Assembly: GCA_003212885.1 (NCBI GenBank)
Contig: QCOP01000002.1
Coordinates: 278-64,277, forward strand
Direction: 5' to 3'
Origin: Prochlorococcus sp. AG-432-D11
GTDB lineage: Bacteria > Cyanobacteriota > Cyanobacteriia > PCC-6307 > Cyanobiaceae
DNA length: 64,000 bases
Within the stretch, counting starts at the first letter, position 1. Every line of letters starts with the position of its first letter. Made by a program: the position numbers and the translations under genes. A model generated the notes under the pieces. That model worked only from the letters and a program-made list of their open reading frames with translations. It did not search any database and was not told where the DNA came from. Of this stretch, positions 3,984-32,324 are shown piece by piece.

Positions 3984-4845
3984 TTGATGAAATTCTTTTC
4001 TAGCTTATTTCTGATATTTCTTTTTGCTGTTAGCCCTTTTTCTTCTCCAGTAAGCGCTTCTTCCTCATCTGATCTTGCTCAGATTGATTATATAAACAAT
4101 ATTAAGCAGAGAGGTTACCTTAAAGTAGGACTTCCCCCCTTATATAACTCCTCCCTTCTATTATCCTGACGAGAAAACAGGAGAAATGGCAGGTTATGAC
4201 ATTGATCTTGTGAATGGATTTGCCAATAAATTGGGTGTTGAAGTTGAGTTTGACCGAGATTCAAAAGATTTTAACGATACAGTTTTCAGAGCTGGAAAAG
4301 GAGATTTTGATTTAGCGATTGGTAAGTTGAGTACAACTTATAAAAGAATGTCTGACACTCACCCTCATGAATATATGAATTTTAGGCAAGCACTACTTGT
4401 TAACAGAAAATTTGTTGCATCTTTAGATAAAGGTATATCAGAAGACAAGTTAGGGAAAGACATACTTAATTCAAAAATGAAAGTTGGAATCATAGGTGGT
4501 TCTTCATGGGAATCTTATGCGAATCAATTTATGCCTTCAGCTCAGAAAGTAGGTTATAAAGATTGGCCTGCTGTTAAGAAGGCATTATTTGAAACTAATG
4601 AAATTGATGCAATTTATAGAGATGCTACTGAGATAAAAAAAATAATTTATCAAGAGCCTAATCTTTCAATTAAATATGTTCCTATATTATTTAATGATGT
4701 TAAAGATGTTATATCTATTTTCCTTCCAACAGATGCAAACGTAGCTATGTCAGATGTTCTAGATTTTTATCTAAGAGATTACGGAATAAAAGGTGATGCA
4801 GAAATAATGGAGGAATTATCAGAATTCTATAACCCTATTAACTAA
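3984..4845 (+). pseudogene. Family-3 (amino-acid type) periplasmic solute-binding protein, split by a +1 frameshift in a C6 run
   Basis: ORF 3984..4169 carries a signal peptide and QRGYLKVGLPP. The next frame reads ..PPYITPPFYYPDEKTGEMAGYDIDLVNGFANKLGVEVEF, which matches the SBP_bac_3 pattern. Removing one C from cccccc at 4134-4139 fuses the two ORFs into one. Confidence 0.6.
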
Positions 4846-4877
4846 TTTTTTTTCTTTTAATCTTTTAAATATTAATT

Positions 4878-6164
4878 ATGAATTATTTAACTTTCAAAAA
4901 ATTCAGTCTAAGACTACGTTCAGTCAAGAACTTTTTGTTGATCATTTTACCAATTGCTTTGTTAATAGGTTATTTCTTCCCTTCCGCTTCATCGTCATTA
5001 AATACTATAGGTGTTTCTCTAATTAAACTGATTACCTTTCCAGCAATTCCATTAGTTCTTTCAGCAGTTGTTATTTCGATAACGTCTCTTTTTGATTTTA
5101 CTGGAGTTAATACATCTCATAATAAATTTGCAAAGAAGTTAATTCTTTCTTTGATTGGATTTATTTTCTTTTCCGCAGCGTTAGGACTTTTCCTTTCTTT
5201 ATTTATTAAACCTGGAATTCTTACTCCTGAAGGTAAACTGTCTATTGGTAAATATATGTTGGATACTACTGATATTCAAGTTAATATATTTAAATCTGAA
5301 ACAGAGAGTTTAGTTTCGAGCAATATTAACTTCTTTCAAACTCTTATACCTACAAACATTATTTCTGATGCAGCTAATAGCTCTACTTTGAGGATTATTA
5401 CAGGTTCAATATTGACTGGTCTTGGATTAGCTGCTGTTCCCTCAGAAAAAGCCAAGCCAATACTGTCCTTCTTGAAATCTGTAAATGCTTTGTCTGTAAA
5501 AGTTTTAGAAGAGCTTCTTGTTCTATCACCAGTAATGTTAATTTGTTTAATTGCAGGTGCATTTTCTTCAATTAGTACAGAGATAATAGTAGCCCTTTTG
5601 AACTTGGCACTTTGTGTTTTAGTTGGATCAATAGCTTTCCTTGGTATATCTAAAGTTATATTTAGAAAATTTACTTCTACTGAGGAGAGGAATATTCTAT
5701 CGTCCAATCCACTTGATGATGTGTATCTTTTAGCAATTTCAACGGGAAGCAGTATGGCGTGTTATCCAACTATTGTAAATACATTAAAGAATATTGGTAG
5801 AGATCCTAATGAGGTAGAGGCTTCTGCATCGATGAGTTTGTTATTAGCTAGATTAGGAAATATAATTTACAATGTAATTGTTATTATTTTTGCATTTAAT
5901 CTTTATGATGTTCGTATAACGCCTCTAATATTAATCCAAGCACTTCTAATGGGTATAGTTACAGGAATAGCAACAGCTGGTTTGACTGGTGTTGCTGTCC
6001 TTCCAAGTATTGGAGTAGCTTTGGCATTCTTTAGTCTGCCTATTCCGCCAATACTGCTCTTAATTGTTGCTATTGATCCAATAATTGATCTTCTTAGATC
6101 TTCTATTACTGGAGTATCTTCGATGGCACTAAGTACTGTAGTTTGTAGAAGAGGTGTCGTCTAA
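4878..6164 (+). CDS. Dicarboxylate/amino-acid:cation symporter (DAACS/GltP-like) family transporter, divergent
   Basis: It is a polytopic membrane protein. Segments STGSSMACYPTIVNTLKNIG and IDPIIDLLRSSITGVSSMALSTVV resemble the conserved SSaatLP and D..RT..Nv.G blocks of SDF-family carriers. Confidence 0.5.
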   Translation: MNYLTFKKFSLRLRSVKNFLLIILPIALLIGYFFPSASSSLNTIGVSLIKLITFPAIPLVLSAVVISITSLFDFTGVNTSHNKFAKKLILSLIGFIFFSAALGLFLSLFIKPGILTPEGKLSIGKYMLDTTDIQVNIFKSETESLVSSNINFFQTLIPTNIISDAANSSTLRIITGSILTGLGLAAVPSEKAKPILSFLKSVNALSVKVLEELLVLSPVMLICLIAGAFSSISTEIIVALLNLALCVLVGSIAFLGISKVIFRKFTSTEERNILSSNPLDDVYLLAISTGSSMACYPTIVNTLKNIGRDPNEVEASASMSLLLARLGNIIYNVIVIIFAFNLYDVRITPLILIQALLMGIVTGIATAGLTGVAVLPSIGVALAFFSLPIPPILLLIVAIDPIIDLLRSSITGVSSMALSTVVCRRGVV

Positions 6165-11490: not shown

Positions 11491-11541
11491 TAAATATTAC
11501 TTTTAAGTACTAATTAACAACTTTGATTACCTTGTTCTTAT

Positions 11542-11626
11542 GGAGAGGTGGCTGAGAGGTTTAAAGCGAACGATTCGAAATCGTTTGACAGGTAACTGTC
11601 CGTGGGTTCGAATCCCACCTTCTCCG
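11542..11626 (+). tRNA. tRNA-Ser (anticodon CGA), type II with long variable arm
   Basis: The acceptor stem pairs GGAGAGG with CTTCTCC (one G-U) and the discriminator is G. The anticodon stem AACGA/TCGTT carries loop TT-CGA-AA. The variable arm is TGACAGGTAACTGTCC and the T arm is GTGGG-TTCGAAT-CCCAC. Confidence 0.9.
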
Positions 11627-11729
11627 TAATTTCTTTTGTTCATGGATGCTAATACTCCCTGCACTGGAAAGGATTAGAGGGAAACATCTGTTCCTAGACG
11701 CTCAAGGATATTCATAGAGTTTCAGTCCT

Positions 11730-11821
11730 GTGTTGGCGGATGTGTTGGTGGATAATATAAATGTGTTGGCGGAAATATTAGGTGCTTTTATGAGTTGTTT
11801 TTTTAGATATGTGTTGGCGGA
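11730..11821 (+). repeat. Motif cluster A: four direct copies of GTGTTGGCGGA (one is GTGTTGGTGGA)
   Basis: The copies lie at 11730-11740, 11742-11752, 11763-11773 and 11811-11821, all on the + strand. The cluster sits 104 bp after the tRNA and upstream of the AlpA-like gene. Confidence 0.9.
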
Positions 11822-11911
11822 TGTTATTTCTTTCAAACCCTTATTACCACTGCTAGTTAACGCTTACTGGTACGTCCAAAGTGTCCCTATAGTAGATACG
11901 ACTTCATTGCT

Positions 11912-12094
11912 ATGAAACCTCATTTTTATACACGAAAAGATGTCCTTGCGATTACAAGATACTCACGTTCAACTATTGACCGTTTAGAGGCAAAAGGGCA
12001 GTTCCCTAAAAGGTTATCCCCTTCTGTAAATAGGATTTTTTGGATTGCATCTGAAGTTGATAAATGGTGTGAGGAGTTATCTAATGCTTACTGA
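11912..12094 (+). CDS. AlpA/excisionase-like (MerR-superfamily HTH) small DNA-binding protein
   Basis: ITRYSRSTIDRLEAKGQFPKRLSPSVNRIFWIASEVDKWCEE matches the phage AlpA/Xis pattern (..rsTiyrl...G.FP.p..l....v.W...ev..W). Confidence 0.65.
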   Translation: MKPHFYTRKDVLAITRYSRSTIDRLEAKGQFPKRLSPSVNRIFWIASEVDKWCEELSNAY

Positions 12095-12221
12095 TAAAGA
12101 AATACGCAAAATTAAAGTAACTAATCATCAGCAAAACTTTGGATATGGTTCTATTGCCAAGTCATTGGGCATGAAGAAATCTACAGTACAGATGATTGTT
12201 CAAAGGGAGGTAGCAGCATGA
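12084..12221 (+). CDS. 45-aa HTH protein (absent from the ORF track)
   Basis: The protein is MLTDKEIRKIKVTNHQQNFGYGSIAKSLGMKKSTVQMIVQREVAA, and GYGSIAKSLGMKKSTVQMIV looks like a helix-turn-helix. It overlaps the previous stop by 11 nt and shares ATGA with the next ORF. Confidence 0.45.
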   Translation: MLTDKEIRKIKVTNHQQNFGYGSIAKSLGMKKSTVQMIVQREVAA

Positions 12222-12421
12222 TTAGAACAAATAATTATGCAGGTGGATTATCTAATTACATTGTTTTGAAGGAAGAGAAGGAAGTTATTTTTTATTTGCA
12301 TAATCCCTATCCAGATTGCTTGGAAATCCCTGAGATAATGAAGCATAGGTTTCCTGATGATTACAAGAGCATAGTTGTAAGTTCCTTGGATGAGTTCAAG
12401 AAGTATGGGCAGAAAGTATGA
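12218..12421 (+). CDS. Hypothetical 67-aa protein
   Basis: The ORF is coupled by ATGA overlaps at both ends. A ggagg Shine-Dalgarno-like sequence lies upstream. Confidence 0.45.
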   Translation: MIRTNNYAGGLSNYIVLKEEKEVIFYLHNPYPDCLEIPEIMKHRFPDDYKSIVVSSLDEFKKYGQKV

Positions 12422-12594
12422 GTACTGATTGGAAAGACACCTCATGGCAAGAAGATTTCTTAGACATGAAGGCACATAAACCAGAAGACGTGAAATTGCT
12501 CATGGAAGGACCGAGAGGTTTTTTGGATGCAATGAAACTTGGTTCTCTTCATGAGGAATACAAACGATTGAAAAAGAGGCAAAGCAATGAATGA
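12418..12594 (+). CDS. Hypothetical 58-aa protein (absent from the ORF track)
   Basis: The protein is MSTDWKDTSWQEDFLDMKAHKPEDVKLLMEGPRGFLDAMKLGSLHEEYKRLKKRQSNE. It has an ATGA overlap upstream and an 8-nt overlap downstream. Confidence 0.4.
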   Translation: MSTDWKDTSWQEDFLDMKAHKPEDVKLLMEGPRGFLDAMKLGSLHEEYKRLKKRQSNE

Positions 12595-12850
12595 CATCAA
12601 TTGGAGAGAAGAATTATTGGACTCGGCAAAGTTCAATAAGAAGGAAGAAAACTTGTTGATGCATGGTGCAAAGTCATTGGCACAGAGTTGGCACTTAGGT
12701 GCTCTGTACACACGCTGGAAGAAGTTGAAAGGTTATAGAGAACCTCCGACTCCTAATTGCCAAAGTTCATTTCTTGAATGGGAGCATCGACTTGCCAAGT
12801 GTGACTTCTATATCCTTAATGAAGAGGACTTCTCTTATCCAGACTGGTAA
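12587..12850 (+). CDS. Hypothetical 87-aa protein
   Basis: The ORF is in the coupled chain. I recognised no family. Confidence 0.45.
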   Translation: MNDINWREELLDSAKFNKKEENLLMHGAKSLAQSWHLGALYTRWKKLKGYREPPTPNCQSSFLEWEHRLAKCDFYILNEEDFSYPDW

Positions 12851-12856
12851 AAAAGT

Positions 12857-13000
12857 ATGCAGTTAATTGAACAGCACAAAAAATTCATTGCTTGGTACCA
12901 AGAGAAACTTGGTTTGTCTGATTATGGATTGCTTTGGTTTGTTTTTTTTAAAGGCGTTGTTCTCACTCTGATCATTGAGCGATTACTCTTTCATCTCTGA
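12857..13000 (+). CDS. 47-aa single-TM protein (absent from the ORF track)
   Basis: The protein is MQLIEQHKKFIAWYQEKLGLSDYGLLWFVFFKGVVLTLIIERLLFHL. It is a paralog of the ORF at 13502..13663 (shared ..Y..KLGL....WL.F..G..L pattern). Confidence 0.4.
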   Translation: MQLIEQHKKFIAWYQEKLGLSDYGLLWFVFFKGVVLTLIIERLLFHL

Positions 13001-13007
13001 GGTTGTT

Positions 13008-13169
13008 ATGACTATTGATTGGAATGCTGCCAGAAAGCACTGCACTGAAAAGAACTGGAAGTGGACGCTGGATTTGATCGACAAATACCAAAAAGAAATG
13101 GAAGAACTAAAAGATGAGAATGTTAAACTCAAGCGACAATTGGTTCTTAGATCTCAAATGAACAAGTAA
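13008..13169 (+). CDS. 53-aa coiled-coil protein
   Basis: The ATG at 13008 is preceded by gagg. The protein is MTIDWNAARKHCTEKNWKWTLDLIDKYQKEMEELKDENVKLKRQLVLRSQMNK. A TAATG overlap links it to the next ORF. Confidence 0.4.
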   Translation: MTIDWNAARKHCTEKNWKWTLDLIDKYQKEMEELKDENVKLKRQLVLRSQMNK

Positions 13170-13501
13170 TGCCAGTTTTGATAATTGGTTGGAGCGTGTA
13201 CGACAAACTCTCAGAGGAAGAGCAAAAGGAGTTTGCATTAGTAGAGCGATATAGAACTGATTATTTTTATGAGTGCTATGAGTATGAAAATGCGAAGGGG
13301 AATAAAAATTATGAGTGGAGTGATCGATGCTTTACAAGTCAGGAAGAATTATTGGAATTCTTTGGTTATGAAATGATCGAAGACTTAAATGCAGATGCCG
13401 TATATGCAAGAAGGGTAGAGATGTTTACTGATGAGGAAGAAAAGAAGTGGATGAAATTAAGCGATGGTGGAAATCAAATCAAAGTAATGGGAGCGAAATA
13501 A
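13169..13501 (+). CDS. Hypothetical 110-aa acidic protein
   Basis: It is the largest ORF in the coupled chain. I recognised no family. Confidence 0.5.
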   Translation: MPVLIIGWSVYDKLSEEEQKEFALVERYRTDYFYECYEYENAKGNKNYEWSDRCFTSQEELLEFFGYEMIEDLNADAVYARRVEMFTDEEEKKWMKLSDGGNQIKVMGAK

Positions 13502-13663
13502 ATGCTTACCACTATCAGACAAATACACGACTCCACAATTGATTGCTATAGGAAATTGGGTCTGAATAATTCCACGATTGCTTGGTTGCTCTTTGTAGAA
13601 GGATTGTTTTTAGTTCTTGTAGGCAAAACAATCGTAGAATTGGTTGAAAAATTTTCCCTCTGA
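13502..13663 (+). CDS. 53-aa single-TM protein (absent from the ORF track)
   Basis: The protein is MLTTIRQIHDSTIDCYRKLGLNNSTIAWLLFVEGLFLVLVGKTIVELVEKFSL. Its ATG directly follows the previous stop. Confidence 0.4.
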   Translation: MLTTIRQIHDSTIDCYRKLGLNNSTIAWLLFVEGLFLVLVGKTIVELVEKFSL

Positions 13664-14183
13664 CAATAACTTTCTAATCAATTACTTTGATTAGATTTTG
13701 ATCTTCACCTTTCCACTCTTTGTAATCTTCATAGTCATAACCATCATTAGATAGTATGTCTTTTTCAATACTCACAATCCAATTATCTTTAAAACAATGT
13801 CTATCTTGTAATGGATAATTTGCATTTCTAAAAGCACAAACCTCATCAAATAATTGATTTTGTTCTTTTTCTTACTTTAATCATAATTAAGTGTTAGATG
13901 TTATTTAATTCCAGTCCTTTTTTGAGGGGATTTAATGACGGTCTTGGTCGTCACTATATGGACACTTTCGACGTATCAGTTTCTAATATTTTGCTGTTGA
14001 ATTGTTCCCTACACTATAGGTTTAGTTTGGATTTACCAGTTATTTATACTTACAGATCACTTGTTAAAAGTATACGTAATTTGCAGTTAATTTGTTATAT
14101 AAAAAAGTTAGGAACCAAAAGTCTACAAAGCATTCCTTTTGAGAGAAAACATCCCGCCAAAAATTTCCCCATAAGGTTTTTTT

Positions 14184-14219
14184 GTGTTGGTGGATAGAAT
14201 GTAGTTAGTTGTTGGCGGA
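14184..14219 (+). repeat. Motif cluster B: GTGTTGGTGGA and TTGTTGGCGGA
   Basis: The copies lie at 14184-14194 and 14209-14219. The cluster ends 5 bp before the ATG of the TPR cargo gene. Confidence 0.8.
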
Positions 14220-14224
14220 TCGAG

Positions 14225-14698
14225 ATGAAGAAACGAACTGCGATTATTGGAACACTGGTTTCATTGCTACCTATGGGACAACCGTTGGTGATAGGGACTG
14301 GAACGGTTTTGACTAGTGCTGCGGTGATGCTTACTGCCCCTGAAATAGCAAAGGCAGAGAGTGCTGAGTTCTATTTCCAAAGGGCATATAAGAAAGGCGA
14401 AGAAGGAGATTATTCGGGAGCAATAGTTGATTACAACAAGGCGATTGAGATCAATCCAAAGGATGCAGATGCGTATTACAACCGTGGAAATGCAAAAGAT
14501 GAATTAGGAGATTATTCGGGAGCAATAGTTGATTACAACAAGGCGATTGAGATCAATCCAAAGGATGCAGATGCGTATAAAAACCGTGGGAATTCAAAGG
14601 AACTGATAGAAGATATGAAAGGTGCTTGTTCTGATTGGAGAAAAGCATCTGAATTGGGAGATGAAGATGCTGCACAATGGGTAAAGAACGAATGCTGA
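14225..14698 (+). CDS. Secreted TPR-repeat protein (island cargo)
   Basis: It has a hydrophobic N-terminal leader. The 34-aa TPR units read DYSGAIVDYNKAIEINPKDADAYYNRGN, and the C-terminus is GACSDWRKASELGDEDAAQWVKNEC. A perfect 72-bp duplication lies at 14406-14477 = 14508-14579. Confidence 0.8.
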   Translation: MKKRTAIIGTLVSLLPMGQPLVIGTGTVLTSAAVMLTAPEIAKAESAEFYFQRAYKKGEEGDYSGAIVDYNKAIEINPKDADAYYNRGNAKDELGDYSGAIVDYNKAIEINPKDADAYKNRGNSKELIEDMKGACSDWRKASELGDEDAAQWVKNEC

Positions 14699-14751
14699 TA
14701 TTTTTTTAGAAGTTTGATTGCCTACAGTTTATTTTTTGAACGTAATAAGAA

Positions 14752-14774
14752 GTGTTGGCGGATGTGTTGGAGGA
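14752..14774 (+). repeat. Motif cluster C: GTGTTGGCGGA and GTGTTGGAGGA
   Basis: The copies lie at 14752-14762 and 14764-14774. The 27-bp block 14752-14778 matches 11730-11756 with 3 mismatches. Confidence 0.85.
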
Positions 14775-14807
14775 TTATTAGGTATTCTGAAATGTACCTG
14801 CGCACTC

Positions 14808-14855
14808 CTGTCCATACCTGTTCAGTAGTGTTCAATTAGGCGGACACCTTCTCCG
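14808..14855 (+). repeat. Decayed copy of the tRNA-Ser 3' half (attR-like boundary 1)
   Basis: ctgtcc...gttcaattaggcggacaccttctccg compares with tRNA ctgtccgtgggttcgaatcccaccttctccg. The terminal 11 nt are identical. Confidence 0.7.
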
Positions 14856-14946
14856 CTTTTCTAAAACGAACTTGGGTTGTATAGGGTGCAAATAAGTATC
14901 ACGCTAATTAATTTGATCTAAGATATCTAATATTTAACTATTTGAT

Positions 14947-15288
14947 ATGGCAAGATTTGCATTGCAAGAAGGAGAAAATCTACTTTCCTTAAAACGGCGT
15001 GCGTACTGGAAGAATTTGAGACATGCTAGTAATTTTGGCACTCTTTACTTGACTGATAAGAGAATAGTTTTTTGCTCAACTGCAGGGTGGAAGTTGGTGC
15101 TATTAGGTCAGATATTTGATTCATTTATTAAATCAGCGAATATACGTTGGGAGGCAGAGCACAGTCGTGTTGGAGTTATAGATGGTAATGGTATGTACTC
15201 TAAACTCAAATTCTTGACTTTGGATGGAGAAAATACCAACGTAGTAGTTGAGGAGGATTTTATTAATTTGATGAACACTTTTAAGTGA
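14947..15288 (+). CDS. Hypothetical 113-aa protein (possibly bacterial PH/GRAM-like)
   Basis: GTLYLTDKRIVFCS resembles the core strand pair of GRAM/bPH domains. This is only a weak motif-level reading. Confidence 0.4.
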   Translation: MARFALQEGENLLSLKRRAYWKNLRHASNFGTLYLTDKRIVFCSTAGWKLVLLGQIFDSFIKSANIRWEAEHSRVGVIDGNGMYSKLKFLTLDGENTNVVVEEDFINLMNTFK

Positions 15289-15344
15289 TAGCGTCCAAAA
15301 AAAATCCCAATTAATATAATATTCTCATTTGTAAAATTAAATCA

Positions 15345-15770
15345 ATGAATTTACTAAGAAAAATAGTGACATCTTTGATTATTGGGTCTACCATTGTCGC
15401 TTGTGCTGATCCAAATAAGGAGGTGAAATTTGATGCAAATGTAATCCAAACTACCAATGAAAAGATCATATTAAAAACTACAATTACAAATTATTCAGAC
15501 TCGGACAAAACTCTTAGTGAGATTGATATCGATAAGTCTTTACATCAAACTCTTAATTTATCTAGGATGGATGGTTCTATAGGAGAGCCTATCCCTCTTG
15601 ACAATACTTATTCTTATGAAATCAATCAAATAATTCCTTCAGGAGAATCCTTGACGATAAACTTTAAAGGACAATCTACAACTCAGTTTATATCGGGAGA
15701 AATAGATTTTATAGTAAATAATGATAATTGGAACTTTCGGTCTATATTAGTAGATTGTTGTAAAGAATAG
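15345..15770 (+). CDS. Putative lipoprotein, 141 aa
   Basis: The signal peptide has a lipobox-like IVAC (MNLLRKIVTSLIIGSTIVAC). Confidence 0.5.
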   Translation: MNLLRKIVTSLIIGSTIVACADPNKEVKFDANVIQTTNEKIILKTTITNYSDSDKTLSEIDIDKSLHQTLNLSRMDGSIGEPIPLDNTYSYEINQIIPSGESLTINFKGQSTTQFISGEIDFIVNNDNWNFRSILVDCCKE

Positions 15771-16121
15771 GTTCCATTTTTCTTTTGATATCCTATATTT
15801 ATGACTATTATGATTCTTCTTCTCTTAACAGAAGTTGTTCACCCTACTTTGATATCGAGAGCAATTATTTTTGACAATTGGCTGACAAGATATTCCCTCT
15901 TCATACCTCTATAGCCTCAAATGTAGTGGTTTAGTTGGAACATGATATTAAAAATGGAATACAAGAGAAAATAGATCAGAGTAGGGTTTACCCCCTCCAT
16001 CCTTGAACTTAGAATTTCTAACCCGGTGTCACTTTGGTTATAAAAAAATAGTGTTATAGTATCTGAAGAATTTTTAGGTATAAATTGTCTTATAGCAATT
16101 AATTTACTTTCAAAAATTACT

Positions 16122-16144
16122 AATTAGTCGGACACCGTCTCCCC
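16122..16144 (+). repeat. Second tRNA-end-like boundary repeat (attR-like boundary 2)
   Basis: It shares 20 of 23 nt with 14834-14856 and retains the gacacc.tctcc core of the tRNA acceptor/T-arm end. Confidence 0.6.
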
Positions 16145-16167
16145 TTTTGGTTGAAATTTTTTCAAAT

Positions 16168-16488
16168 ATGACTACAAAAATAGAAGCTTTGTCTAATAGG
16201 CAAAAAGATGCAGGGTGGGGGTATGCCTTTGCTCATTGGATTCCCTTTCTTTGGATCTACTATGCAATTACTAGGAGAACTATAACTCCTTTTCTTTATT
16301 TATTATTTGGGGGGTTTTTGGTTGGATTAACTATTGGGATTGTTTCTGCAATAGTTAATCCTAAGGCAAAAGAGGATAATCTTAGTAGATTAGGAGCTAT
16401 TGGAGGTTTTGTAGCGACTCCATTCCTTGCTAAAAAGGGTATCGATCAATCAAGAAAATCTGGAAAGAAACAATTAGAAAAAAATTAA
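16168..16488 (+). CDS. Small membrane protein (hypothetical)
   Basis: I preferred the ATG at 16168 because the TTG at 16147 abuts the boundary repeat. Two to three TM segments are present. Confidence 0.45.
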   Translation: MTTKIEALSNRQKDAGWGYAFAHWIPFLWIYYAITRRTITPFLYLLFGGFLVGLTIGIVSAIVNPKAKEDNLSRLGAIGGFVATPFLAKKGIDQSRKSGKKQLEKN

Positions 16489-16625
16489 TTAATTATCTTT
16501 CTGAAGAATAAGGATTCTGCGGTATAAATAATACCAGATTATCATTTGCTTTATATTCGTTTGTATTTTTATAGTAGAGATAATTTTTACAATTTATTTA
16601 ACTATTAATTTTAGGATCTTATAAA

Positions 16626-17141
16626 TTAGACATGATAAGCTCTGTCTATACATAGTAGATACTCTATTGATCGTTGCATTGAAATGTTAGCCCAAATACA
16701 AAAAACAAAATAGATAGCAAAGTAGGGAGGCCACAATATTAGACCCACAATACTAAATGATAAAAGAAATATACAAGATGAAAAAACCACAAAAAACAAA
16801 TTAAACATTAGAATAATCATTGGAAGATCCTTTATAGGAGGAGTCAAGTTGTCTCTTCTTTTATTCGAACTTCCTTTCGTTTTCCTAGTATAATAAGCAG
16901 CCCGATCCGGTATTATGAAATCAAATAAAATAAAAGCAAGACCACAAGTAAAGAATGATATGAAAACTGCTATAAATGGGTTGCATATTTGCGAATCTTC
17001 ATCAACTGCATTGAGAACTTCTATCCATTTGTACAACAAATAGTAACCATATAAACCACATGTAAGCCAAGTAAAAAAAACTATCTCCAAGGTACTAATG
17101 TACCTAAAATTTTTGATTATTTTGGAGTTTTCGATTTCCAT
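16626..17141 (-). CDS. Membrane protein, possibly DUF4234-like
   Basis: It has four TM segments. FTWLTCGLYGYYLLYKW resembles the DUF4234 signature (..T.GiY..yW.yk). Confidence 0.4.
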   Translation of the reverse strand: MEIENSKIIKNFRYISTLEIVFFTWLTCGLYGYYLLYKWIEVLNAVDEDSQICNPFIAVFISFFTCGLAFILFDFIIPDRAAYYTRKTKGSSNKRRDNLTPPIKDLPMIILMFNLFFVVFSSCIFLLSFSIVGLILWPPYFAIYFVFCIWANISMQRSIEYLLCIDRAYHV

Positions 17142-17485
17142 TGGAAGACGTTACTTATGTCATGCTGTACATTTATATAATAAACTAATGATCATGATTT
17201 TTGAATAAAATATTTTTTATTTATATTCGCATCTTCGATCTGTGCATATATTATATTTTAGAATATTTATTTTGACATTCTATCTTCTGCTTTGTAATTA
17301 TTTTAGATATAAATCTAATTAATAAATGCTTCCATAGTTTTTAACTAGCAGGTTAATTGATGCCCTTTCAAGTATTTAGATGTTTTAGACTTTTCAAGTC
17401 TCTTTAAATGTCTAATTTCTATTAGGATTGAATTTGTTATATTTGCGAGAGCTTGCTAGACTAAATTTTAATTTAAAAGATCTAT

Positions 17486-17779
17486 ATGGATATAGCATCT
17501 CTCGTCTTGCTCTTATTTGCCTCATTACTATATTTACTTCATGGTATTAGTAGTGTAGTGTGTGAGTATTTTGATTTTTGTCTACCATTCTCTTTATTCG
17601 TAAGTATTTTATTTATACAAGTTGTTTTTTACTTTATGTCTTCTTGTAGTTCATTAATTAATTGTTTTACTAATAGGAATTCAGGTAAATTGTATAAGTT
17701 TCTTTTATTATCAGTTTCTTCAGGAATGTTTCTAGCTAGTTTGAGTTGGCTGATTGCATGGTTTCAAAAGTTCCAATAA
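17486..17779 (+). CDS. Small membrane protein (hypothetical)
   Basis: This 97-aa ORF has three hydrophobic segments. I recognised no family. Confidence 0.35.
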   Translation: MDIASLVLLLFASLLYLLHGISSVVCEYFDFCLPFSLFVSILFIQVVFYFMSSCSSLINCFTNRNSGKLYKFLLLSVSSGMFLASLSWLIAWFQKFQ

Positions 17780-18127
17780 ACTATATTTTAGTTTTCAAGA
17801 ATAATTTATTTAATTAATTGCATTTATTAATTCTAAGAGATTATCGCATTAATTTTTTGTTGATACTTTTATGGATTTAATATAAGAATAGTTAGTCCAT
17901 TTTTATTTTTAGCAATTATTCTTCTTATCTCTATAGGTAGAGCGCTCTTTTCAGTTAATACTTAACAAGTTATTCTCTTGGGATTATATATTAATATATA
18001 GTTATTAGTATTGTACTCAAGTTTTATTTGGCATAGTATAAATTACTTTATATTATGCCATCATATTACTTTTTATGGTAGATTCTTTTCTTATACCTAT
18101 AATTTTAGATATCATTTAAATCTTCTT

Positions 18128-18715
18128 ATGTCGCAATCAATAATTCTTAATAGGGCTTGGTCGGACTATAAAAAACACTGGTCCATGACTCTTGTATTTG
18201 CCATTCTTGCATTACCATTCTGTTCTGGTTTCTTTTTCTTCCCAATTCTGGTTGTTTTGATTGGTTATGTTCCATGTATTTTTTATAAAACACAGAAGGT
18301 TGTTACCCCTAAGGATATCGGATCATTTCTGGGTGATAACTTTTTGAGAATTATAATTGCTGGAATATGTCAAACTATAGCTATTGCTATTGGTACTTTA
18401 CTTTGCTTTATTCCAGGAATATTGGTTTCTCTTTCTACACCTTTAGTGCTTTCGAGAATTGTAAATACTGACAAATCAGGTTTTGAATGTGTCAAGTTAG
18501 GAATTCAAGAAGTGTTTACAGGACTTGGATCTAAAAAAATATTGCTATTTATTATGAATCAATTTATCATTGGACTAGTGCTTACTTTATCTATAACATG
18601 CACTTTTGGTCTAGGTGGCATTGTAGCTCTCCCTGTGGCTCAGTTTTATCTCTATGGATATATGAAAAATAATAATCTTGGGAATGATGCAATAAATCTT
18701 CTTCCTTCTCTTTAG
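18128..18715 (+). CDS. Polytopic membrane protein (hypothetical)
   Basis: I preferred the ATG at 18128 (MSQSIILNRAW..). The upstream part of the ORF-track call is low-complexity AT-rich sequence. Confidence 0.45.
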   Translation: MSQSIILNRAWSDYKKHWSMTLVFAILALPFCSGFFFFPILVVLIGYVPCIFYKTQKVVTPKDIGSFLGDNFLRIIIAGICQTIAIAIGTLLCFIPGILVSLSTPLVLSRIVNTDKSGFECVKLGIQEVFTGLGSKKILLFIMNQFIIGLVLTLSITCTFGLGGIVALPVAQFYLYGYMKNNNLGNDAINLLPSL

Positions 18716-19311
18716 GTAATAACTTTTTCTTCGTTCGCCCCATTCCTTTTGTGGTTTCGCAATTTGACTATCAATCTTTTACCCAATATTAATAGTATAA
18801 CTATCAATATTAATGATATTAAAGGTAGGAGAATTGCAGTTAAAGTTAGTATTATAGACACTATATCTTCTGCAATGGCAATAATAGGATTGCCAAGTCC
18901 TCCTGTAGTTGCAGTTGATAAGCCACGCAATAAGACTGATGAAGTTTGAACTGTACCAGTTAGCCCAACCCCTGAAATCAAAGCAAGTATCCATTGTAAT
19001 CCCGGATAGATTCCATCAAGTGAAGCACATGTGAGGATTGTGCCAGCTGTTATAGCAGCTGGTGTAGAAATAATATCTAGTAAATTATCTAGCCAGGGTA
19101 TGAAATATCCGCAAACTTCAAATAATGCAGCTGCAGCAAATAAGCCAATAGCCCAATCTGATGAAAACCATTGCCAGGATTCGCCAAGTGTTATTAAGTC
19201 TGCTCTTGTAAAAATACCCAGAAATAGTGGTGGCAGAAAGGCACGAAAACCGCATGCAGCCGAAAGCCCTAAGCCAAGGGAAATTGAGGTAATTGGGGTA
19301 AATAGATCCAT
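18712..19311 (-). CDS. DUF4126-like membrane protein
   Basis: MDLFTPITSISLGLGLSAACGFRAFLPPLFLGIF and the overall TM layout resemble DUF4126. Four other ORF-track calls overlap this locus on both strands and are shadows. Confidence 0.5.
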   Translation of the reverse strand: MDLFTPITSISLGLGLSAACGFRAFLPPLFLGIFTRADLITLGESWQWFSSDWAIGLFAAAALFEVCGYFIPWLDNLLDIISTPAAITAGTILTCASLDGIYPGLQWILALISGVGLTGTVQTSSVLLRGLSTATTGGLGNPIIAIAEDIVSIILTLTAILLPLISLILIVILLILGKRLIVKLRNHKRNGANEEKVIT

Positions 19312-19555
19312 ATAAAACGCTATTAGTTTGATTAATCTTAGATAAGTTTTTAATCATTGATTAAAAAGTATACACTTGGTTAAAGTATATGAGTTACTTG
19401 CTTATGAATAAAAACTTTCAAAATACTTAGTAAGTTGTCCTTGATTGTTCAGAGATTCTTAATCTTTATACTAGATTCAATGAAACTTTTTCCCGCTAAA
19501 TTATCTAATAAAGCAAAAGCTTTTTTAGATAATTACTTTATTCAATTCTAAATTA

Positions 19556-19978
19556 GTGTCTTATTTTTTCTCAACTCTAAGTCAAAGAATTAATTTGACA
19601 AAAAAAAAGAAATTTATTCCATTAGCTCTGATTGGATATCTTTCTTTGAAAAAGTATTTAAATTGGTTGCCAGGCTTGAGTTGCCCTTTGCGGCATGCAA
19701 CTGGTGTACCATGCCCAACTTGCTTTCTTACTCGATCAGTATCAGCAAGTTTAACCGGTAATTTAGGTGAAGCATTGGAATATCACTTATTTGGTCCACC
19801 TATTGCAGTTTTTTTAGTTTGGTGGATGTTCTATACTCTTAAAACTAAAAAATTAATTCCATCTAGATTAAATGTATTATATATTTCTATATTCATAGCT
19901 ATGATTTTTATTTATTGGATAGTTAGACTTGTATTAAATATATTTTTTCAAGTCCCCTCATTCCCACTGGAAATTTAA
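19556..19978 (+). CDS. DUF2752-like membrane protein
   Basis: CPLRHATGVPCPTCFLTRS matches the DUF2752 CP...tG.pCP.Cg.tR motif. TM segments follow it. Confidence 0.55.
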   Translation: MSYFFSTLSQRINLTKKKKFIPLALIGYLSLKKYLNWLPGLSCPLRHATGVPCPTCFLTRSVSASLTGNLGEALEYHLFGPPIAVFLVWWMFYTLKTKKLIPSRLNVLYISIFIAMIFIYWIVRLVLNIFFQVPSFPLEI

Positions 19979-20055
19979 TTTTCACCCTAATTATTGTATT
20001 TAAATTGTTTTTTGTGTGAATTTATACTTCAGCAGACTAGAATTAATAGGAGATA

Positions 20056-21009
20056 TTATTCATTTAGGCATGACCTTAAATATTTTGTCCATTTCATGTG
20101 ACCCTTCTTAGAAAGATGAACACGGTCAACATAATCAGTTGGCGAATAATCCTCTTTTATAAAATAGTAAAGATTGCAGGTGCTCAAGACATTTGGGTTT
20201 TCTTCAAGAGTAATAAGATAATCATCATATAATTTTATATTAGAAAGATTCTTTTTGCTTTTTTCAAACCATACTTTTGGAGGGGTTAAAACAACATCAA
20301 CCTTGAATTTTGAAGATCTAATGTAATTATTTAGATCATTCCATGCTATTTCAATAGTTCTCGCTTCTATTTTTTGATCTGTGGGATTGACTTGTTTTTC
20401 TTCAGGAGTCTCCGTTCTTAAACCTAAAAGTATATATCTCAAAAAAACATAATTAAATAATTCATTTATTGCTTTAGGCTGCTTTGGTGGTGATGTCCAG
20501 TATGGTAGGCCTCTTAGTTGAGATAAGTTTCTTAAATCGTCTCCAGGCAGAATAATTAGAATGAATTTTGATGGTATACGGTCAGAATAGAGAGAGAAAT
20601 TAGCAATAAATCTTCCCATGTTATCCGTTCCCCATCCATTTACTCCTGAATTTAAGCAAACTAATTTTCTATTCTTTGAACAATAGGCAATAGAAAATAA
20701 TTCAGTATCATCTATATATGAACCACCGTAAGTTACACTATCTCCAACAAAAATAATAATTTTAGCATTTGGATCTTGTTTCTTATTAGGGTCGAAACGA
20801 AAACCTTCAAAGTCTGTATTTACAGCTGTATTTTTTAATCTTACTTTGCTTTGGTTTGGCCTTAACCTGTAACCAATTAGCTTATCTTCTTTATATAGTA
20901 ATGGATTACCTAGTCCTATTGTCCTTCCAGTAAATTCTAAAACCAGCGTTCCAAATAATATAGATATTGATAAAAGAACGATATTAGTAATTAATTTTTT
21001 TAAATTCAT
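20056..21009 (-). CDS. Membrane-anchored SGNH/GDSL-like hydrolase or acyl-modifying enzyme
   Basis: It has an N-terminal TM segment. Block I is IIIFVGDSVTYGG, block III is ILPGDDLRN and block V is DRVHLSKKGH. It is a paralog of 22846..24141. Confidence 0.6.
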   Translation of the reverse strand: MNLKKLITNIVLLSISILFGTLVLEFTGRTIGLGNPLLYKEDKLIGYRLRPNQSKVRLKNTAVNTDFEGFRFDPNKKQDPNAKIIIFVGDSVTYGGSYIDDTELFSIAYCSKNRKLVCLNSGVNGWGTDNMGRFIANFSLYSDRIPSKFILIILPGDDLRNLSQLRGLPYWTSPPKQPKAINELFNYVFLRYILLGLRTETPEEKQVNPTDQKIEARTIEIAWNDLNNYIRSSKFKVDVVLTPPKVWFEKSKKNLSNIKLYDDYLITLEENPNVLSTCNLYYFIKEDYSPTDYVDRVHLSKKGHMKWTKYLRSCLNE

Positions 21010-21369: not shown

Positions 21370-22254
21370 ATGAAAAAAATAAATGTATTCCTAGCTACCT
21401 TTATTGCTTTGATGCCACTAGGACGTCCCCTTTTTCTTATAACTGGAGCTTCTCTGACAGCTTCTGCTGTAGTGTTGACTTCACCTGACAAAGCTTATGC
21501 AGATAGAGATTTTTATTTCTTTTATAATCGTGCCGTTACTAAGTATAATTTAGAAGATTATTCTGGAGCAATTTCTGATTATAATAGAGCAATAAAGATT
21601 AATCCAAAGGATGCAGATGCTTATTACAATCGTGGCAGTGCTAAGTATAATTTAGAAGATTATTCAGGATCGATATCTGATTATAGTAAAGCAATTGAGA
21701 TTAACACAAAGTATGCAGATGCTTATTACAATCGTGGCCTTTCTCAATATAAGTTAGAGGATTATTTAGGATCGATATCTGATTTTAGTAAAGCAATTGA
21801 GATTAACACAAAGTATGCAGATGCTTATTATAATCGTGGCCTTGCAAAGAGTTTTTTAGAAGACTATGAGGGAGCTATATCTGATTATAGTAAAGCAATT
21901 GAGATTAATCCAAATGATGAAATGAGTTATATTAACCGTGGTATTTCGAAGGATAGCTTAGAAGATTATTCTGGAGCTATATCTGATTACAGTAAAGCAA
22001 TTGATATTAATCCGAATGATGATATAAGTTATTACAACAGAGGTATATCGAAGGATAACTTAGAAGACTATGAGGGAGCTATATCTGATTATAGTAAAGC
22101 AATTGAGATTAATCCAAATGATGGTGATTATTTCCTGAATAGAGGAATTGCGAGGGAGTTAGTTACTGATCTTAATGGTGCTTGTTCTGACTGGAGATCT
22201 GCTGAATCATTTGGGAATGCAGATGCGGCTATATGGGTAAGAAATCAATGCTGA
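21370..22254 (+). CDS. Secreted TPR-repeat protein (7 units), paralog of 14225..14698
   Basis: The leader is similar (MKKINVFLATFIALMPLGRPL..). The TPR units read DYSGAISDYSKAIEINPxDxxxYYNRG, and the tail matches (GACSDWRSAESFGNADAAIWVRNQC). Adjacent 102-bp units are nearly identical. Confidence 0.8.
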   Translation: MKKINVFLATFIALMPLGRPLFLITGASLTASAVVLTSPDKAYADRDFYFFYNRAVTKYNLEDYSGAISDYNRAIKINPKDADAYYNRGSAKYNLEDYSGSISDYSKAIEINTKYADAYYNRGLSQYKLEDYLGSISDFSKAIEINTKYADAYYNRGLAKSFLEDYEGAISDYSKAIEINPNDEMSYINRGISKDSLEDYSGAISDYSKAIDINPNDDISYYNRGISKDNLEDYEGAISDYSKAIEINPNDGDYFLNRGIARELVTDLNGACSDWRSAESFGNADAAIWVRNQC

Positions 22255-29704: not shown

Positions 29705-31087
29705 TTAATCAAGATCTGCCATTGATAATGCAGGCTCGTTATTTCTATCAATTCCTTTTTCAAAACCAGCTGCAGCTGCTCTTGCTCTTCCTGCGTGCCA
29801 TAAATGACCTATGAATGTAAACCATCCAAGGAAAAACTGTGCAGAAGCAAGCCATTGACGAAGATTAACAAAGTTAACTGCGTTAGGCTCGGTAATGATT
29901 CCACCAACAGAGTTGATAGAAGCGTTTGGAGCATGAGTCATATATTCAGCAGCTCGACGAACTTGCCAAGGCTGAATATCATTTTGAATCTTATCTAGAC
30001 TCAGACCATTAGGTCCTCTAAGAGGTTCAAGCCAAGGTCCTCTGAAATCCCAGAAACGCATGGTTTCGCCTCCAAAGATAATTTCTCCAGTAGGAGAGCG
30101 CATGAGATATTTACCAAGACCAGTTGGTCCCATAGCAGTACCTACATTTGCGCCAATTCTTTGATCTCTAACTAAGAATGTGAAGCTCTGAGCTTGAGAT
30201 GCTTCGGCATTAGTTGGACCATAGAATTCAGATGGATAAGCAGTGTTGTTGAACCAAATAAATGTTGAAGCAACAAAACTTGCTACACAAATACCACCCA
30301 ATGCATAACTGAGCAGTCCCTCTCCATTCCAGATAAAGGCTCTTCTAGCCCATCCAAATGGTTGAGTAAATATATGAAATAGACCACCGAGAACTTCGAT
30401 GACACCAACATAAATGTGGCCGCCAACTATATCCTCCATGGAATTAACACCAACCATCCAACCTCCTCCACCCCAAGGGGTTTGAAGTAGGTATCCAAAA
30501 ATAACTCTAGGATCAAGAGTTGGATTGATTAGTCTTACTTCTCCTCCACCGGGAGCCCATGTGTCATAAGCTCCGCCGATGTACATCCAGTTGATGGACC
30601 AAGCAAGAGCACCAACTCCAAGAACGATGAGATGAAAACCAAGGATATTAGTCATTTGATTTTTATCTCTCCAGTCTGTGGAGAAGAATGGGAAAGCTTC
30701 TTCTAATTTTTCTGGTCCAGCCAATGAATGGTAAATACCTCCAAAACCTAGGATTCCAGATGCAATTAGATGAACAACACCTGCTGCAAAAAATGGATAG
30801 ATGTCTGTAACTTCTCCACCAGGACCAATCCCATAGCCAAACATTGCAACGTGAGGCATGCAAATTAATCCTTGCTCCCACATTGGTTTGTCAAATGTGA
30901 AATGACTCACTTCATAAAGCATCATGGCACCGGCCCAGAAAACAATCAGGCCTGCATGAGCTATGTGTGCTCCAAGTAATTTTCCAGAGAGATTGATTAG
31001 ACGAGCATTGCCTACATACCAGGCATAGCCTGTCTCTTCAATACTTTGGTTAGGAGCCTTTAATAGGTTATTAAAGGGCGTTTCCAC
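29705..31087 (-). CDS. psbC: Photosystem II CP43 reaction-centre protein
   Basis: The protein is CP43 over its full length. I set the start at GTG 31087 ([13 protein letters not shown]..), which overlaps the psbD 3' end by 17 nt, as is typical for psbDC. Confidence 0.93.
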
Positions 31088-32147
31088 GTGGGAGTACCTC
31101 CTCAGGGAATACAAAATTTTCGTGTGGTTGATCCACAGAAGACATCCAAGCTCTCATACCTTCGTTTAAAAGTATGTTTTTGGTATAAAACGTTTCAAAC
31201 TCTGGATCTTCTGCAGCACGAATTTCTTGACTTACAAAGTCATATGCTCTCAAGTTCAAGGCAAGACCAACAATTCCAATAGAAGAAGTCCACATACCCA
31301 TTACAGGTACGAAGAGCATCAGGAAGTGAAGGAAACGCTTGTTTGAGAAAGCTATACCAAAGATTTGACTCCAGAAACGATTAGCAGTGACCATTGAATA
31401 GGTCTCTTCTTCCTGGGTAGGATCAAAAGCTCTGAAAGTTGAACTTTGTACCTTGCCTTCAGAGTAGATGCTTGTATCTTCATAGAGAGTGTTTTGCACA
31501 GTTGCACCATGTATGGCGCATAGCAGTGCTCCTCCAAGAATCCCAGCAACACCCATCATGTGGAAAGGATTCAAAGTAATATTATGGAAGCCTTGAATGA
31601 AGAGGATGTAGCGGAATATTGCAGCAACTCCAAATGAAGGAGCAAAGAACCAACTATGTTGGCCAAGTGGATAAATTAGGAAAACACTTGTAAATACTGC
31701 AATTACAGCTGAAAAAGCAAGAGCGTTGTATGGACGAATGCCAACTAGTCTTGCAATTTCAAACTGACGAAGCATGAAACCTATAAGACTGAATACACCG
31801 TGGAGTGCAACAAAATTCCATAGGCCTCCAAGCTGGAGCCATCTGACTAAACTTCCTTGAGCCTCAGGTCCCCAAAGGAAGAGAAGACTGTGGCCCATAG
31901 CATCGCCAGGAGTGCTAACGGCAGCTGTAAGGAAATTGCATCCTTCAAGATAAGAACTTGCAACACCATGGGTATACCAAGAAGTTACAAAGGTTGTGCC
32001 TAGGAACCATCCCCCTATAGCCAAATAGGCAGTAGGGAATAGAAGAAGACCAGACCAACCAACAAATACGAATCGGTCGCGCTTTAGCCAGTCATCGAGG
32101 GTGTCAAACCACCCTCTTTCTGGTACGCGTCCAACAGCGATCGTCAT
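31071..32147 (-). CDS. psbD: Photosystem II D2 protein
   Basis: [33 protein letters not shown] is the D2 N-terminus. The start is the internal ATG at 32147. The ORF-track extension to 32291 is not D2 sequence. Confidence 0.95.
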
Positions 32148-32324
32148 GAGAGGAACGTTGCTGAGAATATGTGAATACCGTGGGACTTTAACAATTCCTG
32201 ATGGATGACGGGGAATATTTTTATCAGATGAAATCGGTTGTTGTATTGCTAAATAGTCCAAAAAACTAATTTTTGGTAATTTTTGGACCAACTTGTAAGA
32301 GAATATTCTTGTCTAATTCAAGTC

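Follow-up and report, generated by a model that had tools for sequence, protein, structure and literature searches.

Two stacked layers at the 3′ end of a Prochlorococcus tRNA-Ser(CGA) gene, the first probably an integrase-deleted derivative of an autonomous element

The 64,000-nt stretch of Prochlorococcus sp. AG-432-D11 analyzed here (the window) carries two layers of DNA stacked behind the 3′ end of a tRNA-Ser(CGA) gene: layer 1 at 11627-14855 (~3.2 kb) and layer 2 at 14856-16144 (~1.3 kb). This tRNA gene is the only one in the window (ARAGORN), and its last 11 nt return at the far end of layer 1 as the copied core of an attachment (att) site. The features of the tRNA gene and layer 1 are given below, where L029 is one of the ocean metagenome contigs (L029-L035, from Tara, ENA, and Logan) with an AlpA protein identical to that of the window.

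11541-11627, + strand: tRNA-Ser(CGA), intact (ARAGORN; Rfam RF00005 at 11542-11626, 58 bits)
11616-11626, + strand: attL core CACCTTCTCCG, the final 11 nt of the tRNA
11627-11911, + strand: left (P′) arm, with GTGTTGGCGGA-type repeats at 11730, 11742, 11763, and 11811
11866-11893, + strand: 28-mer in the alpA upstream region, within the left arm
11912-12094, + strand: alpA/xis, intact, encoding a 60-aa AlpA-family excisionase/regulator (Pfam PF05930, 1.1e-9; phrog_2790, 1.7e-10)
12084-12221, + strand: 45-aa fused open reading frame (ORF), an integrase stump with a foreign helix-turn-helix tail (tblastn, blastn)
12218-12421, 12418-12594, 12587-12850, 12857-13000, 13008-13169, 13169-13501, and 13502-13663, + strand: seven small ORFs in operon-like arrangement (ORF listing)
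13674-14040, − strand: apparent frameshifted small ORF (about 13674-13885) and inverted copies of the 28-mer
14076-14195, + strand: inner part of the right arm, 92% identical to L029 108-228 and ended by the repeat copy at 14184
14196-14751, + strand: insertion with a TPR gene (14225-14698), flanked by repeats at 14184/14209 and 14752/14764
14752-14855, + strand: right (P) arm, with a repeat pair at −93/−81 relative to the attR1 core, which occupies 14845-14855

An earlier note on this DNA had proposed at least two site-specific integrations at the tRNA 3′ end, and this proposal is borne out by core and end repeats that exceed chance. As the note had stated, the 11-nt tRNA end is copied exactly and on the same strand at 14845-14855, which is the only other occurrence of CACCTTCTCCG in the 64 kb. 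Two such matches appeared in none of 100 shuffled sequences (0/100), and the chance expectation from base composition is 0.003 per strand, so the 11-nt repeat passes the shuffled-sequence test that the note had named as a way to refute it. In addition, the 23-mer AATTAGGCGGACACCTTCTCCGC at 14834-14856 is repeated at 16122-16144 with 3 mismatches, for which the chance expectation is none; the agreement of 20 of 23 nt seen earlier between the two boundaries extends to 24 of 27 nt when 14834-14860 is compared to 16122-16148.

The reading of 14808-14844 as a decayed copy of the variable-arm/T-arm half of the tRNA did not hold. When the tRNA minus its last 11 nt was aligned to 14760-14844, the best local score was 13, no better than chance (P about 0.5): shuffled sequences gave 13.2 ± 2.1 (P = 0.55), and real genomic windows gave P = 0.41. 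No partial tRNA was found at either boundary by Rfam at E ≤ 1. The segment is conserved in related elements as their right arm (nhmmer E 1e-27 to 1e-32), and it is the element's own right arm rather than a tRNA remnant. As a separate observation on the tRNA itself, the acceptor stem in the window has a G6:U67 wobble pair arising from the CACCTTCTCCG end, where ten relatives have CACCCTCTCCG instead. The wobble T is also present in attR1 and in the attR core of a layer at locus L005 (layer A, 4949-4960), although the tRNA of L005 has C; this is a hint that the strand-exchange point is 3′ of position 67.

The first gene 3′ of the tRNA is alpA, whose PHROG match is annotated as 'excisionase and transcriptional regulator'. 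By exact-sequence look-up, the identical protein (60 aa) is present on at least seven contigs from ocean metagenomes, L029-L035. On these, the gene after alpA, which shares a few bases with it, encodes a 421-aa tyrosine integrase (domains Arm-DNA-bind_3, Pfam PF13356, and Phage_integrase), and a 148-aa ORF comes next. The DNA of these contigs is 98% identical to the window at 11808-12148 and shows no similarity past 12148 (blastn), which places the break at 12148/12149, 65 nt inside the integrase gene. On the window side, 12084-12152 encodes 21 of 23 residues identical to the N-terminus of the L029 integrase (tblastn). Because the AlpA proteins are identical, the 98% DNA match stops abruptly, and a 23-codon stump remains, layer 1 can be identified as the derivative of an autonomous element with a cut integrase gene. 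Collectively, layer 1 descends from an autonomous element, and its integrase gene is truncated.

No functional integrase, serine recombinase, or primase is present in either layer or elsewhere in the 64 kb, and no other recombinase was found in the window by tblastn with four recombinases from related loci as queries. The earlier statement that neither layer encodes an integrase or a primase is thus correct for functional enzymes, but it overlooked the 23-codon integrase stump and alpA. Of the two options that the note had left, decayed relic or non-autonomous element, the relic option has gained direct evidence in the 21 of 23 surviving integrase residues and the stop of homology at 12148. 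The tail of the fused ORF matches Pfam HTH_SB and HTH_38, both below the cut-offs. Its origin as the C-terminus of a small serine recombinase, considered on the basis of synteny in locus L006, was not supported, as BLASTP showed no similarity to the L006 resolvase.

Both arms of layer 1 contain an 11-nt direct repeat, GTGTTGGCGGA, of which 8 copies (≤1 mismatch) lie within 11730-14774, all on the + strand, versus 0.15 expected in the whole window. The four left-arm copies are 104-185 nt past the tRNA, and the motif with its context repeats as 19-27-nt units. The left arm is 88% identical to L029 342-633 (left-arm profile E 3e-61, nhmmer), and the right arm (profile E 1e-30, nhmmer) matches L029 217-331 at 83% identity and L002 20564-20657 at 80%. 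Overall, L029 is 83-92% identical to window positions 14076-14195 and 14752-14863 and 88% identical to 11637-11929. In L029, which lacks a tRNA, a right-arm-like sequence is followed by the core GGACACCCTCTCCGT, a left-arm-like sequence, alpA, and the integrase gene; the more distant relative L026 has the same layout of right arm, core, and left arm, again with no tRNA. Such attP-type junctions indicate that 14752-14855 and 11627-11911 are the two arms of one element. An integrated autonomous form is found at the same tRNA in L010, where the tRNA is followed by repeats, alpA (57% identical), and a 423-aa integrase gene. A further peculiarity of L029 is a unit in three tandem copies at about 520-900, which runs from the fourth arm repeat through the alpA upstream region into the first codons of alpA.

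The tRNA site was compared among ten Prochlorococcus species representatives that have futA and tRNA-Ser(CGA). The two genes are adjacent, with futA first, in all ten, and the content after the tRNA is different in each. The next conserved landmark past the tRNA is rpmG (L33), at a distance of 10.7 kb in the window as against 0.3 kb (L001), 1.3 kb (L003), 4.1 kb (L008), and 4.5 kb (L005). The check on related genomes that had been proposed for this locus has uncovered a hypervariable site, with near-empty and differently filled versions among relatives.

Several of these sites hold layers without an integrase. L005 has two of them: layer A (1.19 kb) with one membrane-protein gene and layer B (0.37 kb) with no gene, and the flank past the second core is 97% identical over 61 nt to the post-tRNA sequence of L007, which can be read as an empty-site-type comparison. 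In L002, a complete element that encodes a VapE-like primase and a different integrase (DUF6538-type) is followed by a partial tRNA and then by a 1.17-kb integrase-less element, which has ends 77-80% identical to those of layer 1 and a single DUF805 gene inside. L008 and L003 also have integrase-less layers, with repeat blocks and a closing core that are arranged differently. The larger element at the same tRNA (L002 11199-19486 and L011 13658-17220) encodes a 526-aa DUF6538-type integrase and a 445-aa VapE-like primase, which are 76-89% identical between the two genomes; it follows that at least two integrase families target tRNA-Ser(CGA). Gene-less layers of 0.2-0.4 kb that consist of arm repeats and a core were also seen in L001 (11204-11430) and L005 (4961-5332). 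By analogy with solo long terminal repeats, they may be the products of recombination between left-arm and right-arm repeats.

Arm geometry was compared in eight elements, namely those of the window, L029, L026, L002, L005 (two layers), L008, and L003. The right arm has an 11-nt direct-repeat pair about 81-93 nt before the core, reduced to one copy in L002 and L003. In the window, L029, L002, and L005 layer A, the left arm has 3-4 copies, starting 104-124 nt past the core with spacings of 12 and 21 nt, while in L005 layer B, L008, and L003 three repeats form a block that directly precedes the right-arm copy or pair. The repeat sequences vary by element (GTGTTGGCGGA, GTGTTGGTGGA, GTGTTAGGGAA, TGTTGTGGGAT, TGTTGTTGGAT, and CTTGTTGGAT), and within one element the sequence is the same in both arms or in both repeat blocks. 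The fixed geometry, the co-varying sequence, and the arm-binding domain of the integrase together suggest that the 11-nt repeats are most likely arm-type sites, putatively bound by the N-terminal domain of the integrase.

In the interior of layer 1, two of the seven small ORFs, 12418-12594 and 12587-12850, match phrog_869 and phrog_16908, respectively, and 13169-13501 has 170 homologues, which come from marine metagenomes and from genomes of Prochlorococcus. The homologues of the 110-aa ORF sit in island contexts without att sites or integrases, so this gene is common in islands and does not mark the layer 1 element. The layer 1 cargo ORFs are full length. The fused ORF, the 67-aa ORF, the TPR protein, and the 113-aa layer-2 ORF have no exact match on record. 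Homologues of the 12218-13663 ORFs adjoin a resolvase in L006. In that locus, the homologues of three layer-1 ORFs (70-91% identical) occupy 4132-5525 in inverted orientation, 2.3-3.8 kb from the L006 tRNA-Ser(CGA) and beside a gene for a 194-aa resolvase/invertase-type serine recombinase; from this arrangement, inversion of these ORFs by the L006 resolvase is a possibility.

The 28-mer ahead of alpA has inverted copies at 13953-13980 (89% complementary) and 14013-14040 (79%). The segment 13674-14040 may represent a pseudogene with a promoter copy, and the 28-mer copies are maybe duplicated promoter/operator sequences. Farther along, the region 14196-14751 is absent from L029, in which its flanks abut, and it lies between repeat copies, so that it can be regarded as an insertion into the right arm. 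It encodes a 157-aa TPR protein (Pfam TPR_11, 6e-23) whose N-terminal segment is hydrophobic. A second TPR gene, at 21370-22254 beside rpmG, is its paralogue in the window (63-72% DNA identity), and L010 has a TPR gene with 80-82% identity to it. The insertion may be host flanking DNA captured by the element, or the cargo of a fused mini-element.

Layer 2 and its closing boundary contain the following features.

14856-16121, + strand: layer 2 body, with two ORFs (14947-15288 and 15345-15770)
16122-16148, + strand: attR2, a 27-nt element-end remnant, AATTAGTCGGACACCGTCTCCCCTTTT

The ORF at 14947-15288 has a weak GRAM-like match and that at 15345-15770 has a hydrophobic N-terminal segment, and neither gives informative matches. 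No arm repeats or recombination genes were found in layer 2. Arm homology upstream of the second boundary was looked for and not found: an ungapped comparison gave 21 of 73 identical positions versus 19 ± 3.7 expected, and nhmmer aligned the last 21 nt only, at a non-significant E of 2.3. The preferred reading of layer 2 is that a related element was inserted here earlier or has decayed further. The remaining island, at 16147-21009 up to the TPR gene and rpmG, encodes small membrane proteins (DUF4234, DUF4126, DUF2752, and unknowns) and contains no further core-like sites. Elsewhere in the window, a G+C peak of 0.43 at 30-32 kb (29705-32291) corresponds to photosystem II genes (Pfam PSII, Photo_RC) and not to foreign DNA.

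Taken together, we consider it probable that two integrations took place at tRNA-Ser(CGA), with layer 1 being an integrase-deleted derivative of an autonomous element and layer 2 an insertion that is older or further decayed. Two successive site-specific integrations would have occurred at the last 11-12 nt of the tRNA gene. The ancestor of layer 1 would have had an AlpA-type excisionase, a P4/CP4-57-like tyrosine integrase, and 11-nt repeat arrays in both arms. A deletion or replacement beginning 65 nt into the integrase gene would then have removed the enzyme while the cis sites and the excisionase gene survived, the TPR gene would have been inserted among the right-arm repeats, and layer 2 would have been reduced to 27 nt of element end.

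Several points weigh against this account. The full-length parent was not recovered, and the contigs that carry it stop about 1 kb past the integrase gene; with this early stop, 12149-14075 could be either parental cargo, as in a simple deletion, or DNA that was recombined in. BLASTP against the L006 resolvase gave no match that would point to a source for the helix-turn-helix tail in the fused ORF. The FutA protein of this genome is a singleton among about 15 billion proteins, as is the TPR protein, and the best FutA identity among the species representatives is 76%; the collections thus contain no close relative in which an empty or single-layer site of the same lineage could be seen. The order of the integrations is read solely from the degree of decay, the binding of integrase to the GTGTTGGCGGA repeats is putative, and L029 and L026 could be junctions of tandem elements rather than excised circles.

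Layer 1 keeps the attL core, a four-repeat left arm, a two-repeat right arm at the canonical distance, and the attR core. Because these cis sites and the excisionase gene are all intact, an incoming cognate element might still rescue the layer. It would seem that layer 1 can no longer move on its own and, like a cis-mobilizable element (CIME), would be excisable only with the integrase of such an incoming element. CIMEs derive from integrative and conjugative elements (ICEs) or integrative and mobilizable elements (IMEs) (Pavlovic et al. 2004, Bellanger et al. 2011; reviewed in PMC5704250). Layer 1 shares with them the deletion of integration genes, the retention of attL and attR, and a tandem array from repeated integration at one tRNA 3′ end: its integrase is truncated at codon 21-23, and its 11-nt cores are identical, with repeats at canonical positions in both arms. 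However, it has no conjugation context, it has kept the excisionase gene, and mobilization after accretion was not observed.

The same retained sites raise the question of whether layer 1 and the mini-layers are working non-autonomous cassettes, moved regularly by a cognate integrase in trans or after tandem accretion. This reading, to which we give rather little credence, could account for the intact cis sites and excisionase gene, an AlpA that is 100% identical to that of the circulating autonomous form, the full-length cargo ORFs, the integrase-less layers with matched repeats in the same geometry in L002 and L005 layer A, and the repeat blocks with a closing core, in variant arrangement, in L005 layer B, L008, and L003. 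Against it, the fused ORF and the neighboring 67-aa ORF are on record nowhere else, and layer 1 shows signs of decay in the apparent frameshifted ORF and in the TPR insertion that splits the right-arm repeats. The circular-junction search that the earlier note had put forward also came back empty: no attP junction or circle of the integrase-less form was found, five scans of IMG/VR viral contigs (att patterns, the 110-aa ORF, and the integrase) gave no match, and sequenced phages gave no DNA match. There is no evidence here that integrase-less layer 1 moves or is mobilized by a helper integrase, and full elements decaying in place would equally leave matched arms. The related proposal that layer 1 and the 0.4-1.2-kb mini-layers of L002, L005, L008, and L003 form a working class of miniature cassettes and not debris, each with repeat blocks of conserved geometry and a repeat sequence specific to its lineage, moved by cognate YR_2-type integrases, is also unlikely, if slightly less so.

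The family to which layer 1 belongs bears on the next alternative. Hackl et al. (bioRxiv 10.1101/2020.12.28.424599) described Prochlorococcus islands with stacked elements, partial tRNAs between them, and degenerate remnants, and listed seven island tRNAs, among which Ser(cga) is not included. Their Supplementary Table 5 contains 67 'cryptic_A' elements with integrase group YR_2 and the signature genes SSR and xis2; YR_2 is placed there beside tRNA-Ser(cga/gct) or tRNA-Thr(ggt), with ~20-bp repeats near the tRNA. Layer 1 shares with these elements a tRNA-Ser(cga) target that abuts it, a xis-type gene, and short direct repeats near the tRNA, and its relatives have a tyrosine recombinase (L010 and L029) or, beside the same small ORFs, a small serine recombinase (L006). 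The window copy differs in having no tyrosine recombinase beyond the 23-codon stump and no serine recombinase (tblastn with the L006 resolvase gave no match). The layer 1 family fits cryptic_A/YR_2, matched by these listed features rather than by a YR_2 profile, and its AlpA-family gene is likened to xis2 by type, not by the xis2 profile of Hackl et al.

Could the layers instead be remnants of tycheposons in the strict sense, with their own integrase clade, a primase/helicase replication module, and cargo? The earlier note had likened the pattern to theirs, and there are points in common: tycheposons are tRNA-targeting cargo elements that stack proximally in Prochlorococcus islands, with partial tRNA copies left behind, the location and stacking here match the published tandem elements with partial tRNAs between, and the element with a DUF6538-type integrase and a VapE-like primase uses the same tRNA in L002 and L011. 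The arms, alpA, and the stump of layer 1, however, match a different integrase family, one with a P4-like, arm-binding-domain integrase. No replication gene was detected in the layers by Pfam or PHROG, and tblastn with the L002 VapE-like protein finds nothing in the window. Moreover, the duplication is 11 nt and not about 40 nt, and Ser(cga), absent from the seven island tRNAs, is listed under cryptic_A/YR_2. Layer 1 is not a strict-sense tycheposon, and descent of the layers from one is highly improbable.

Finally, a reading without any integration, in which the repeats would match by chance or through a shared regulatory motif, deserves almost no credence: the core is short (11 nt) and 14808-14844 is not tRNA-like, but the shuffle tests oppose chance, the arm-core-arm architecture recurs in unrelated contigs, and the L005/L007 flank identity is of the empty-site type.

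The integrase-deleted, stacked element preferred here fits a known way of island building and is not a new kind of system. With Lambda/P4-type att sites it shares direct repeats at fixed distances on either side of a short core, and its intact relatives share the integrase N-terminal arm-DNA-binding domain (PF13356), whereas binding in the present family is deduced only from geometry and covariation. Unlike phage satellites of the phage-inducible chromosomal island (PICI) type, it gives no matches to terS, capsid, packaging, or interference genes (Pfam, PHROG). The recurrent integrase-less mini-layers with matched repeats are the only potentially new angle; if they are indeed mobile cassettes, they would give a route for single-gene traffic in Prochlorococcus islands.

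The locus provides a base-pair-resolved case of island growth at a tRNA, from integration through integrase loss to burial by or beside other layers. For a little-studied group, otherwise encountered only in one row of a supplementary table, it also supplies a concrete att-site architecture: a 12-nt core that has a repeat pair about 81-93 nt upstream and 3-4 repeats 104-194 nt downstream. The change of repeat sequence under a fixed geometry yields a testable prediction on the arm-site specificity of the integrases, and the arm architecture offers a handle for integrase-less derivatives that integrase-based screens miss.

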